Both the position numbers and the translations under genes were made by a program. Positions 3,162-5,492 of a stretch of DNA of 5,734 bases are shown here, in pieces. Positions within the stretch are counted from its first letter, which is position 1; every line of letters begins with the position of its first letter. The notes under the pieces were generated by a model. It had not been told where the DNA came from. It saw only the letters and a program-made list of their open reading frames with translations, and ran no database searches. This stretch comes from a virus (taxonomy: Duplodnaviria > Heunggongvirae > Uroviricota > Caudoviricetes): the IMG/VR virus record IMGVR_UViG_2778261417_000002. One strand, given 5' to 3'.

Positions 3162-3809
3162 TCAGCGACCAATCACCACAACCTGACCACCATCCCCTTC
3201 GTCTGCCGTGCTGATCTCCTGAGAGACCACCCGCGACCCCACGCGCATTTCACCGTACAGAACGGGCAGAACATTGCCCTGGGCAACCATGTTATCCAGT
3301 GACGAGAAATACGTGTTCTGTTTGCCGTTATCTGTACTGGCTGCCGTGGGCGTCCTGGCTTTCGGTGCCAACATCTGCGCCACACCGCCCAGGATCATAC
3401 TGGCCCCTGCCGCATACATACCCGATACAGCCGTGGCCCCCAGCCAGCCCACAGGGTTCCACCATGCAACCGCAATCAGCGCCGCCCCCAGCACTGCCTG
3501 AAAAATACCGCCACTTTTAGCACCCGCCGGACGCGGTACGATGTGGATCACGGCACCATTTTCCAGCGGCTCATTAAGACGGGCAGACAATTCAGTTTCA
3601 CCTGCATCACGCCCGGCAATGCGTACCTGGTACCAGCCGTCGCTCAGTTTCTGACGAAATGCCGGGATCTGCATGGCCAGCGCCCGGATGGCTTCGGACC
3701 CCGTTTTCACTCGAAGGTCGATGCGGCGGCCAAATCGTTGTAAATCCCCGTAAAGGCAGATGCGTGCCATGCCCGGTGACGCCAGAGGGAGTGTGTGCGT
3801 CGCTGCCAT
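3162..3809 (-). CDS. I: Tail assembly protein I (gpI), ubiquitin-like N-terminal domain followed by a hydrophobic Gly/Ala-rich segment
   Basis: 215-aa minus-strand ORF, MAATHTLPLASPGMARICLYGDLQRFGRR...GGQVVVIGR, in the position of lambda gene I (lambda gpI is 223 aa from memory). ATG at 3809 is preceded by GAGAGAGG; an in-frame stop at 3845..3843 excludes a longer N-terminus. Stop is TGA at 3164..3162. Sits between K and J as in lambda. Confidence 0.9.
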   Translation of the reverse strand: MAATHTLPLASPGMARICLYGDLQRFGRRIDLRVKTGSEAIRALAMQIPAFRQKLSDGWYQVRIAGRDAGETELSARLNEPLENGAVIHIVPRPAGAKSGGIFQAVLGAALIAVAWWNPVGWLGATAVSGMYAAGASMILGGVAQMLAPKARTPTAASTDNGKQNTYFSSLDNMVAQGNVLPVLYGEMRVGSRVVSQEISTADEGDGGQVVVIGR

Positions 3810-4450
3810 TTGTCGGTGTACCTCTCTCGTTTGCTCAGTTGTTCAGGAATATGGTGCAGCAGCTCGCCGTCGCCGCAGTAAATAGCGGCATGATTCGGCA
3901 CCGATGAACCAAAACAGCACAGCAGCACATCGCCCGGCTGCGCCGCTGACAACGGCACCTGATACAGCCCTGTGGCCTCCAGATTATCCAGATAGAGATT
4001 CTGACCGTTACGCCACCAGTTATCCCCGCGATGAAAATCCGGCATCTCAATTCCCGCCAGATGGTAAGCGTCCCGGAACAGCGTGTAACAGTCCGTCACC
4101 CCGTGCTCAAAGCGCCGCCCGGTGAGATGCGGCACACAGCGGAATTTATGAATCGCCCCCCGGCAGACCAGCCACCACGGCAAATCACTCTGTACCTGCA
4201 GCCGCCGGTCGGCCTCACTCAGCCAGGGCAGACCACCGGGGTGGCTGTGGACCAGCGCCACAATCTCTCCCTGCATTTCTGCACTCAGCCAGTCCTCCGG
4301 CGACATCCGGAAATACGCCTCCGGCTCACCGGAGATATTCACGCAGGGAAAATATCTTTCCTCCTCCGGCGTTCTCACCACGAAGCCGCACGACTCCGCT
4401 GGCGCACATCGCCGGGCGTGCGCCAGAATCGCTGATTCTGTCTCTGTCAT
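3707..4450 (-). CDS. K: Tail assembly protein K (gpK), JAB/MPN metallopeptidase-like domain plus NlpC/P60 (C40) peptidase-like domain
   Basis: 247-aa minus-strand ORF. JAMM motif HSHPGGLPWLSEAD (H-x-H-x7-S-xx-D) at residues 68-81, with an upstream E-x-C-G element (PAESCGFVV, E20). NlpC/P60-like Cys/His/His candidates at C121 (DCYTLF), H187 and H199. ATG at 4450 lies 5 nt after the L stop, suggesting translational coupling. An alternative internal start is Met49 (ATG 4306..4304) with GGAGG 11 nt upstream, which would give the 199-aa product that I recall the lambda reference annotating. The 3' end overlaps I by 103 nt in a different frame. Confidence 0.88.
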   Translation of the reverse strand: MTETESAILAHARRCAPAESCGFVVRTPEEERYFPCVNISGEPEAYFRMSPEDWLSAEMQGEIVALVHSHPGGLPWLSEADRRLQVQSDLPWWLVCRGAIHKFRCVPHLTGRRFEHGVTDCYTLFRDAYHLAGIEMPDFHRGDNWWRNGQNLYLDNLEATGLYQVPLSAAQPGDVLLCCFGSSVPNHAAIYCGDGELLHHIPEQLSKRERYTDKWQRRTHSLWRHRAWHASAFTGIYNDLAAASTFE

Positions 4451-4455
4451 GGGAT

Positions 4456-5154
4456 TTACTGCGAAAGTTTGTTAATGGAAAGGAAGCTGCCAAAGTTGCC
4501 GACATTATTGCGAAACTTACAGCCACTCAGGCATTTGCTGCATTTATCCTTCGTGATATCGGACGTCGGCTGGTCATATTCATCCGCGACCGCCGGACCG
4601 CTATAACCGCACTCATCGCCGCGATAGGTCCAGGTGCAGGTGTTGGCCAGCATGATACGTCCCGGAAAAACAGCGCCATCCGTTTCAGTCGGCGTGGACA
4701 GTACAAAAGAGGCACTGACCGCGCTCAGTTCGCTGCACTGCTCGATGCGCCAGCGGCTGATCACCTCCTGCTCCGGATCGGCTTCGCTGTTTCCGTTGAC
4801 GAAGTTCACCGCATCCAGAAAGCGGGCGTAAACCTTACGCCGGACCACCGTTCCGCCGACCAGACTCTGCAGATCTTCCGCCATCCCGGTGATCATGCCG
4901 TGCAGGTTAGAGACCGTCAGTGTCGGACGGGCAGCACTGCCCTTGCCGTTCATCTCAAATCCACTCCCCTGAATGGGATAGGCCTGATACTGCCGACTCT
5001 GCCAGGTGACAGACTCACCTTTTTCGTTCTGCTCATTACAGAAAAAGTAGCGATCCCCGCCTACCTCGGTCAGGTCGATTTCCCAGAGCACCACGCTGGC
5101 CGACTGCTCCGCACGAATGCATTCATTCAGCGTTTCCTGTTGTATGTCCTGCAT
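4456..5154 (-). CDS. L: Minor tail protein L (gpL), tail tip protein with C-terminal cysteine cluster (Fe-S binding in lambda gpL)
   Basis: 232-aa minus-strand ORF, MQDIQQETLNECIRAEQSASVVLWEIDLTEVGG...FLSINKLSQ, the same length as lambda gpL and closely matching my recollection of it. C-terminal cysteines C173, C182, C205, C208, C212. Start ATG overlaps the M stop as TGATG (5156..5152). Confidence 0.93.
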   Translation of the reverse strand: MQDIQQETLNECIRAEQSASVVLWEIDLTEVGGDRYFFCNEQNEKGESVTWQSRQYQAYPIQGSGFEMNGKGSAARPTLTVSNLHGMITGMAEDLQSLVGGTVVRRKVYARFLDAVNFVNGNSEADPEQEVISRWRIEQCSELSAVSASFVLSTPTETDGAVFPGRIMLANTCTWTYRGDECGYSGPAVADEYDQPTSDITKDKCSKCLSGCKFRNNVGNFGSFLSINKLSQ

Positions 5155-5492
5155 CAGATCACCACTTCGTCAAACTGACACGAAAAATCGGTATAGGTGA
5201 TATGTTCTGTCGCTGACCACGTTCGACACACCACTCTGATTTTTCTGTTAATACCCGGCGGGCGCCAAAAAAAAGATTTATAGCCTTCATGCCGGGCTAA
5301 AAATTTTTCAAATGAATCACGTTCATTCGCCTCAACTTTGAAATCACAGGTGAAAACGCGCAGAGAATGATTAAGTCCATTTGGACTTCGTTGCTCATAA
5401 CCATCGCCAAATCTTACAGTTTTTATCGATGGTTTATTTTCTGTTTTCATTCCATCCTCTGGTAACCAGTGAAATTCTTCCGTATTAGCCAC
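5154..5492 (-). CDS. M: Minor tail protein M (gpM), divergent from lambda gpM
   Basis: 112-aa minus-strand ORF starting at GTG 5492..5490: MANTEEFHWLPEDGMKTENKPSIKTVRFGDGYEQRSPNGL...KSFFWRPPG...QFDEVVI. It aligns colinearly with my recollection of lambda gpM (109 aa: ...FRWKVKPGMD...VRFGDGYSQRAPAGL...KSFLWTPP...EFEQVVN) at roughly 50% identity. The GTG start overlaps the H stop by 8 nt and has GGGGGA 7 nt upstream. An alternative start is ATG 5450..5448 (GAGGA 4-5 nt upstream), giving 98 aa. Stop TGA at 5156..5154. Confidence 0.8.
   Translation of the reverse strand: MANTEEFHWLPEDGMKTENKPSIKTVRFGDGYEQRSPNGLNHSLRVFTCDFKVEANERDSFEKFLARHEGYKSFFWRPPGINRKIRVVCRTWSATEHITYTDFSCQFDEVVI

Follow-up and report, generated by a model that had tools for sequence, protein, structure and literature searches.

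Of the essential tail proteins of phage lambda, the reference siphovirus, gpK is the one that is least understood. A 2003 paper listed the JAMM motif in lambda K (PMC300881), and in 2006 the combination of a JAB domain with an NlpC/P60 domain was described and K was proposed to process the ubiquitin-like protein I (PMC1779556). The protein that databases hold as lambda K (AAA96551, TIPK_LAMBD, NP_040598) is 199 aa long, and it has been the basis of recent work. In a 2020 review 199 residues were analysed and nothing but the peptidase at 52–182 was seen (PMC7291167), and a 2025 screen cited NP_040598.1 (199 aa) for gpK (PMC12236752). In structural papers of 2023–2026 (including PMC10721106 and PMC12617516) the role of gpK is described as unknown.

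The two domains of K have well described relatives. The prokaryotic JAMM/MPN+ isopeptidases, such as Pyrococcus furiosus JAMM1 (5LDA/5LD9) and the haloarchaeal desampylase, share with K the fold and the complete motif; K differs from them in being fused to NlpC/P60 and encoded in a phage tail operon, and its substrate is presumably gpI, not SAMP. Escherichia coli MepS/Spr and Bacillus subtilis LytE (C40) have the same papain-like fold and Cys-His-His triad as K. Unlike MepS and LytE, K carries neither a signal peptide nor a module for cell-wall binding, and gpK is not in virions; it may thus act on protein and not on peptidoglycan.

Here we describe a K gene in a window of 5,734 nucleotides, the whole stretch of DNA that was analysed, from a tailed phage (Caudoviricetes; IMG/VR record IMGVR_UViG_2778261417_000002). 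On the basis of sequence comparison and structure prediction, we consider it highly probable that this is the lambda tail-tip assembly gene K, that its main product is a protein of 247 aa made from the ATG at 4450 and carrying two peptidase domains, and that the 199-aa K stems from a G missing from the lambda reference. The window K is an ordinary member of a known family that is already correctly annotated in prophages, and it shows no substantive difference from the JAB + NlpC/P60 K family of 2003 and 2006, with the same two domains and the same ubiquitin-like TAPI neighbour. The long form and its architecture were thus already known; new here is the reason for the 199-aa annotation of lambda K.

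The K locus and its reading frame

The minus strand of the window carries the tail genes M, L, K and I and the start of J. The K reading frame runs from ATG (4450..4448) to TGA (3709..3707) with no interruption, as seen in both the ORF list and the sequence. Upstream of it lies L, an ORF of 232 aa (Phage_tail_L, 326 bits), and downstream lies I (Lambda_tail_I, 88 bits), so that K occupies the position of a lambda-type K (TAPK) in the tail operon, between an L homologue and a ubiquitin-like I homologue. The gene order was the same in the phage records examined. The features of the gene and of its borders are as follows.

3707..4450, minus strand: full-length K, 247 codons and stop (ORF list, sequence, database match)
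4451..4458, minus strand: L stop TAA (4458..4456) and 5-nt spacer ATCCC (4455..4451), a likely termination–reinitiation site (sequence)
4448..4450, minus strand: proposed K initiation codon ATG (ATG in 91 of 91 unique close sequences)
4318..4322, minus strand: GGAGG within the coding sequence, codons Pro43-Glu44, with an 11-nt spacer to the Met49 ATG (anti-Shine–Dalgarno duplex)
4304..4306, minus strand: ATG of Met49 inside the frame, from which the classical annotation of lambda K counts its 199 aa (sequence)
3707..3809, minus strand: 103 nt shared by the 3′ end of K and the beginning of gene I, whose ATG is at 3809 (ORF list)

The first-pass annotation had read the K frame as open from the ATG at 4450, 5 nt past the L stop and with no Shine–Dalgarno sequence, and had placed an internal Met49 ATG at 4306..4304 with GGAGG 11 nt upstream; we found all of these coordinates to be right.

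A protein identical to the window K is already present in NCBI under the name 'C40 family peptidase'. Phage PhiR49_1 is 99.4% identical to the window K in DNA and labels the gene as a 744-nt 'tail tip assembly protein K'; a K of 744 nt is also annotated in phage 434, mEp460 and lambda PV340536. Lambda gpK is encoded by the same gene in the same order (M-L-K-I-J), with 96–97% protein identity; the spacer that follows the L stop and the 103-nt overlap with I are the same too. The database protein of lambda differs in being 199 aa long and in coming from a reference without one G, whereas the window and independent lambda sequences give 247 aa. Indeed, the exact 247-aa lambda protein is found on at least 1,000 contigs, where it is called 'C40 family peptidase' or 'metal-dependent protease of the PAD1/JAB1 superfamily'.

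The plus strand of the window holds an ORF of 562 aa (624–2312), antisense to the J region, which is probably a composition artefact of the antisense frame.

Codons 1–48 and the N-terminal JAMM domain

Although an open extension of 48 codons would arise by chance alone in about 1 in 10 cases, the domain, conservation and selection tests described below led us to regard the upstream extension of K as coding. The regions of the protein to which these tests refer are the following.

4307..4450, minus strand: codons 1–48, missing from the 199-aa lambda annotation; predicted helix 1 and strands 1–2 of the MPN/JAB fold (Pfam, PDB profile, AlphaFold, dN/dS)
4130..4450, minus strand: predicted MPN/JAB domain, approximately residues 1–107 (Foldseek to Pyrococcus JAMM1)
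4394..4396, minus strand: Glu19 codon GAG, predicted JAMM catalytic glutamate (Glu in 95 of 96 homologues; alignment to E-x-C-G of solved JAB proteins)
4208..4249, minus strand: H68-S-H70-x7-S78-x2-D81, predicted zinc-binding part of the JAMM motif (homologue conservation)
3779..4120, minus strand: predicted NlpC/P60 (C40) papain-like peptidase domain, residues 111–224 (Pfam, Foldseek, conservation)

The Pfam Prok-JAB model (PF14464, curated cut-off 25 bits) matched the 247-aa form with 52.8 bits over residues 4–98, covering profile positions 4–103 of 114, whereas the 199-aa form scored 22.7 bits, under the threshold, and covered only profile positions 64–103. Similarly, the NCBIfam desampylase model gave an E value of 5e-7 on the 247-aa form versus 0.087 on the 199-aa form. 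Comparison of the two forms by profile search, which the first-pass annotation had proposed, thus shows that Prok-JAB needs residues 1–48. The same annotation had likened PAESCGFVV (K residues 17–25) to the Glu-containing strand of JAMM domains, and had argued that a product initiated at Met49 would lack this element. Both suggestions hold: Glu19-x-Cys-Gly aligns to the catalytic-glutamate strand of solved JAB proteins, and Glu19 falls within codons 1–48. With the downstream element HSHPGGLPWLSEAD (residues 68–81, 4249..4208), K has a complete JAMM motif composed of E19, H68, S69, H70, S78 and D81, in the exact E-x(n)-H-S/T-H-x7-S-x2-D spacing.

Structure-based searches gave the same picture. 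A PDB search with a profile of 96 homologues matched the JAB proteins 2kks, 2kcq and 5lda from profile position 3 onwards. The AlphaFold model of K, built on the alignment of these homologues, had a pLDDT of 97.3 and a pTM of 0.91; its helix 3–15 and strands 21–26 and 31–36 form the ordered core of the N-terminal domain with pLDDT 97–98. In Foldseek, this domain matched JAMM1 (5lda/5ld9) over 107–109 aligned columns with an rmsd of 2.5–2.6 Å and a TM score of 0.66–0.69, and also AMSH, Rpn11 and CSN5. Met49 is situated between strand 2 and helix 2 (51–60), about 60 residues before the domain boundary. It is therefore well inside the MPN fold, and initiation there would not yield a clean NlpC/P60 module. 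We take the N-terminal domain of K to be an MPN+/JAMM zinc isopeptidase with Glu19, His68, His70, Ser78 and Asp81 as predicted catalytic residues; in the model, codons 1–48 supply its first helix, its first two strands and the catalytic Glu.

The C-terminal domain is unaffected by the truncation to 199 aa. Pfam NLPC_P60 (PF00877, cut-off 23) scored 47.6 bits over residues 111–224, the Cys-His-His triad C121, H187 and H199 is kept, each residue in 95 of 96 homologues, and Foldseek returned MepS/Spr, LytE and Acd33800. This domain is predicted to be an NlpC/P60 cysteine peptidase.

Conservation was analysed at two distances. A scan of 1.84 billion cluster representatives yielded 2,721 relatives, among which 96 full-length homologues of 31–58% identity formed the conservation set. 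G22, N38, H68, H70, D81 and D120 are invariant in all 96, E19 is kept in 95, and P17, C21, F47, S69 (Ser in 92), S78 (90), C121, H187 and H199 are conserved in at least 90%. Every one of the 96 has at least 36 residues preceding the Met49 column. At close range, in 91 unique sequences, dN/dS in the K frame was 0.22 for codons 1–48 and 0.13 for codons 49–247, versus 2.7 and 1.8 for the other two frames over the same 144 nt; 33 of the 55 variable sites in codons 1–48 are at third positions. The conservation of the upstream 48 codons, a further test that the first-pass annotation had named, thus shows purifying selection in the K frame. Related loci were searched with a seed alignment of 10 sequences. 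In 42 divergent loci (Citrobacter, Budvicia, Gilliamella, Pasteurellaceae and others; 45–77% identity) the ORFs are 237–253 aa long and include the segment. Stops or frameshifts in related phages had been pointed to as evidence that would speak against a coding segment; the frame was broken in only 3 of the 171 related loci tested by tblastn, all of them J02459-type records.

These results bear directly on the classical annotation, by which K would be a 199-aa protein only, with the upstream 48 codons untranslated and open by accident. The upstream ATG indeed has no Shine–Dalgarno sequence, and 199 aa is what the lambda reference gives, as do several curated records, DE3 and lambda imm434 among them. 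However, purifying selection acts on codons 1–48 in this frame alone, P17, E19, C21, G22, N38 and F47 are near-invariant at 31–58% identity, the JAB model passes its threshold just with residues 1–48, and the segment belongs to a fold predicted with high confidence. Moreover, the 199-aa labels of DE3 (L088) and lambda imm434 (L089) are 600-nt annotations copied from lambda onto DNA with an intact 247-codon ORF; the lambda imm434 record even gives an RBS feature for its 600-nt K. In a further record, KT232076 (L087), 636 nt are annotated and the ORF is again intact. A K protein of 199 aa only is thus almost certainly not what the gene encodes.

The missing G in the lambda reference

In the lambda reference NC_001416, the K frame is open for just 6 codons above the ATG at 14276, and the ORF that begins at the homologous upstream ATG (14133) leaves the K frame after codon 45 and ends at 76 aa. 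Alignment traced this to a single G, absent in GGAGGC[G]TATTTCC between reference bases 14266 and 14267.

4316, minus strand: the G that is missing from J02459/NC_001416 (alignment, frame analysis, independent lambda sequences)

Because of the missing G the upstream K frame is closed in J02459, and the 199-aa K of J02459, NC_001416 and UniProt follows from it. The first-pass annotation had stated that the classical annotation omits 48 codons. The segment is omitted, as it said, but not by the mere choice of a later ATG, since the frame of the reference itself is closed by the omission of 1 nt.

The G is present in lambda LC730321, PV340536 and KT232076, in the DE3 prophage of BL21(DE3) and in the hybrid lambda imm434, and the hybrids imm21 and h434 imm21 have the same extra base by megablast table alignment; none of these independent lambda sequences is confirmed to derive from the very cI857 S7 stock behind the 1982 sequence. 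PV340536, a PaPa-type lambda obtained from an MG1655 lysogen, has its stf gene split by the stf frameshift. It has nine differences from J02459 (at 138, 14267, 20661, 22444, 25662, 31016, 31966, 34934 and 45618), a count in agreement with Feiss et al. 2022, according to whom many laboratory strains have 9 differences from the original lambda sequence (PMC9119081). We had also considered LC730321 (48,503 bp) as a resequenced Sanger strain, and rejected it because it has 15 differences, including the Ur-lambda-type stf base. The comparison therefore rests on PV340536 and on stray lambda contigs. At least 18 of these were assembled de novo in assemblies of unrelated bacteria, and every one of them has the extra G. 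In the 16 cleanest this is the sole difference from J02459 over up to 3.7 kb, and a few others have the G together with further mismatches. They presumably represent sequencing-control or reagent contamination.

The stray contigs (loci L097–L108, L115, L117, L119, L120, L124, L126 and L145) have low coverage, and some are approximately 48.4–48.5 kb long. Their nominal hosts are Neobacillus, Pseudomonas, Shewanella, Chromatium, Paenibacillus, Bradyrhizobium, Kitasatospora and others.

The deletion was found in 0 of 7,890 matches in E. coli, which came from 4,066 of 5,426 complete genomes. Two GenBank lambda records, OR974322 and OR474059, share it with the reference. OR474059 is flagged UNVERIFIED. 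The first 600 bases of OR974322 are exactly those of J02459, down to the G at 138 that is absent from the independent sequences, so this record is probably a reference-guided consensus, although this identity is not proof. J02459 has this extra G at 138 relative to both LC730321 and PV340536.

We also weighed whether the missing G might be a real mutation of the 1982 stock, in which case a phage with a truncated K would be viable and laboratory growth would not need the JAB domain. There is a precedent in that laboratory lambda has one real inactivating frameshift, in stf (PMC10721106), and the deletion is shared by the two records just described. Yet K is required for tail assembly (PMC12617516), and PV340536, a PaPa-type phage that does have the stf frameshift, has the G, as do DE3, the imm434 hybrid and the stray contigs (at least 18) that otherwise match J02459. 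The second single-G discrepancy, at 138, is moreover as expected for gel-reading errors. We therefore regard a real mutation of the stock as highly improbable.

Programmed frameshifting in lambda K was considered as well and rejected, since the lambda sequences outside the J02459-type records simply have the extra G. A literature search on bases 14266/14267 of J02459 found nothing relevant, and the MutaMouse lambda-gt10 paper makes no mention of a K indel. A commercial supplier's corrected sequence of lambda cI857 Sam7 lists one G deleted at 138 and one G inserted at 14266. From the sequence comparisons we conclude that a single base is wrong in the reference or, at best, that the clone sequenced had a mutation of its own, and that lambda K is a protein of 247 aa.

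The K of J02459, NC_001416 and TIPK_LAMBD is thus without the catalytic Glu and one third of the JAMM domain; any gpK cloned or modelled from these records would be a crippled protein. Full-length K is already annotated in thousands of genomes by the NCBI pipeline. Tracing the 199-aa K to one missing base is a useful correction and not a new type of biology.

Translation start and the proposed action of K on gpI

At the upstream ATG of K we detected no pairing with the anti-Shine–Dalgarno sequence (best duplex +0.7 kcal/mol). The ATG usually lies 4–5 nt past the L stop, and the layout of stop, spacer and ATG was found in 68 + 20 + 14 related loci. Since this start has no Shine–Dalgarno sequence and follows the L stop by 5 nt, K translation most likely begins by reinitiation, with ribosomes that terminate on L restarting at the ATG at 4450.

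The M stop and the L start of the window overlap at 5154–5157 (minus strand) in an ATGA-type junction, and the pairing of the L Shine–Dalgarno sequence is weak (−3.7 kcal/mol). Tight coupling without a strong Shine–Dalgarno sequence thus looks usual in this part of the operon.

The internal ATG at Met49 could in principle provide a second start. Two isoforms would then be made, the 247-aa protein by coupling to L and an N-truncated 199-aa protein from Met49 by means of the internal GGAGG. That sequence pairs well with the anti-Shine–Dalgarno (−9.5 kcal/mol) 10–11 nt ahead of an ATG, at a spacing that is usable if long, and the Met49 codon is ATG in 86 of the 91 close E. coli-type sequences. 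In the other five, however, it is CTG (3), ATA (1) or ATC (1), and the Met49 column of the 96 distant homologues holds Ile in 60, Leu in 13 and Met in 13, with Ile, Leu and Val together accounting for 78. A start codon is found at this position in only 2 of the 42 divergent genomic loci, neither of them with a Shine–Dalgarno sequence. Because GGAGG is also constrained by the coding of the conserved Pro43-Glu44, its presence is not evidence of an initiation site, and the short product would amount to a broken JAB domain and not to a clean NlpC/P60 module. Two isoforms therefore seem unlikely to us. We also judge it quite unlikely that the internal start is an innovation of the E. coli lambdoid lineage, in which a recent Ile-to-Met change at codon 49 beside the coding GGAGG would have created a JAB-defective 199-aa form that modulates, or competes with, the full-length enzyme in tail-tip assembly. 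The first-pass annotation had allowed either that the long form is the functional one or that two isoforms are made: the former is supported by the domain, selection and conservation data, and the latter is without comparative support.

As to the action of the 247-aa K, gpK is absent from virions, and only residues 135–223 of gpI are resolved in the cryo-EM structure of the lambda tip (PMC10721106); of the F-pyocin gpI homologue, only residues 127–200 are seen. Since K was absent from virions by mass spectrometry, it would act as a non-structural assembly enzyme. In the proposal of Iyer et al. 2006 (PMC1779556), the JAB domain clips off the ubiquitin-like domain. Applied to this locus, the JAMM domain of K would clip the N-terminal ubiquitin-like domain off gpI after a Gly-Gly, and what remains of gpI would be the C-terminal plug seen in virions. 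The I protein of the window (3162–3809, minus strand; 215 aa) is consistent with such a cut: Lambda_tail_I covers its residues 14–97, and these are followed by Gly-Gly at 100–101, which, placed after the ubiquitin-like domain, would be the kind of C-terminus that a JAMM isopeptidase cuts after, by analogy with such enzymes. With the 247-aa form, this prediction of 2006 can be put to a direct test.

Annotations disagree on where gene I starts. In lambda and in the window ORF the start is an ATG 103 nt inside K, which gives proteins of 215–223 aa, and in PV340568 and PV340536 it is a GTG that overlaps the K stop (L002, 1591–2133; L086, 1446 onward). Lambda_tail_I begins at residue 14 of the long I ORF, inside the overlap with K, so the short annotation would cut approximately 20 residues off the ubiquitin-like domain.
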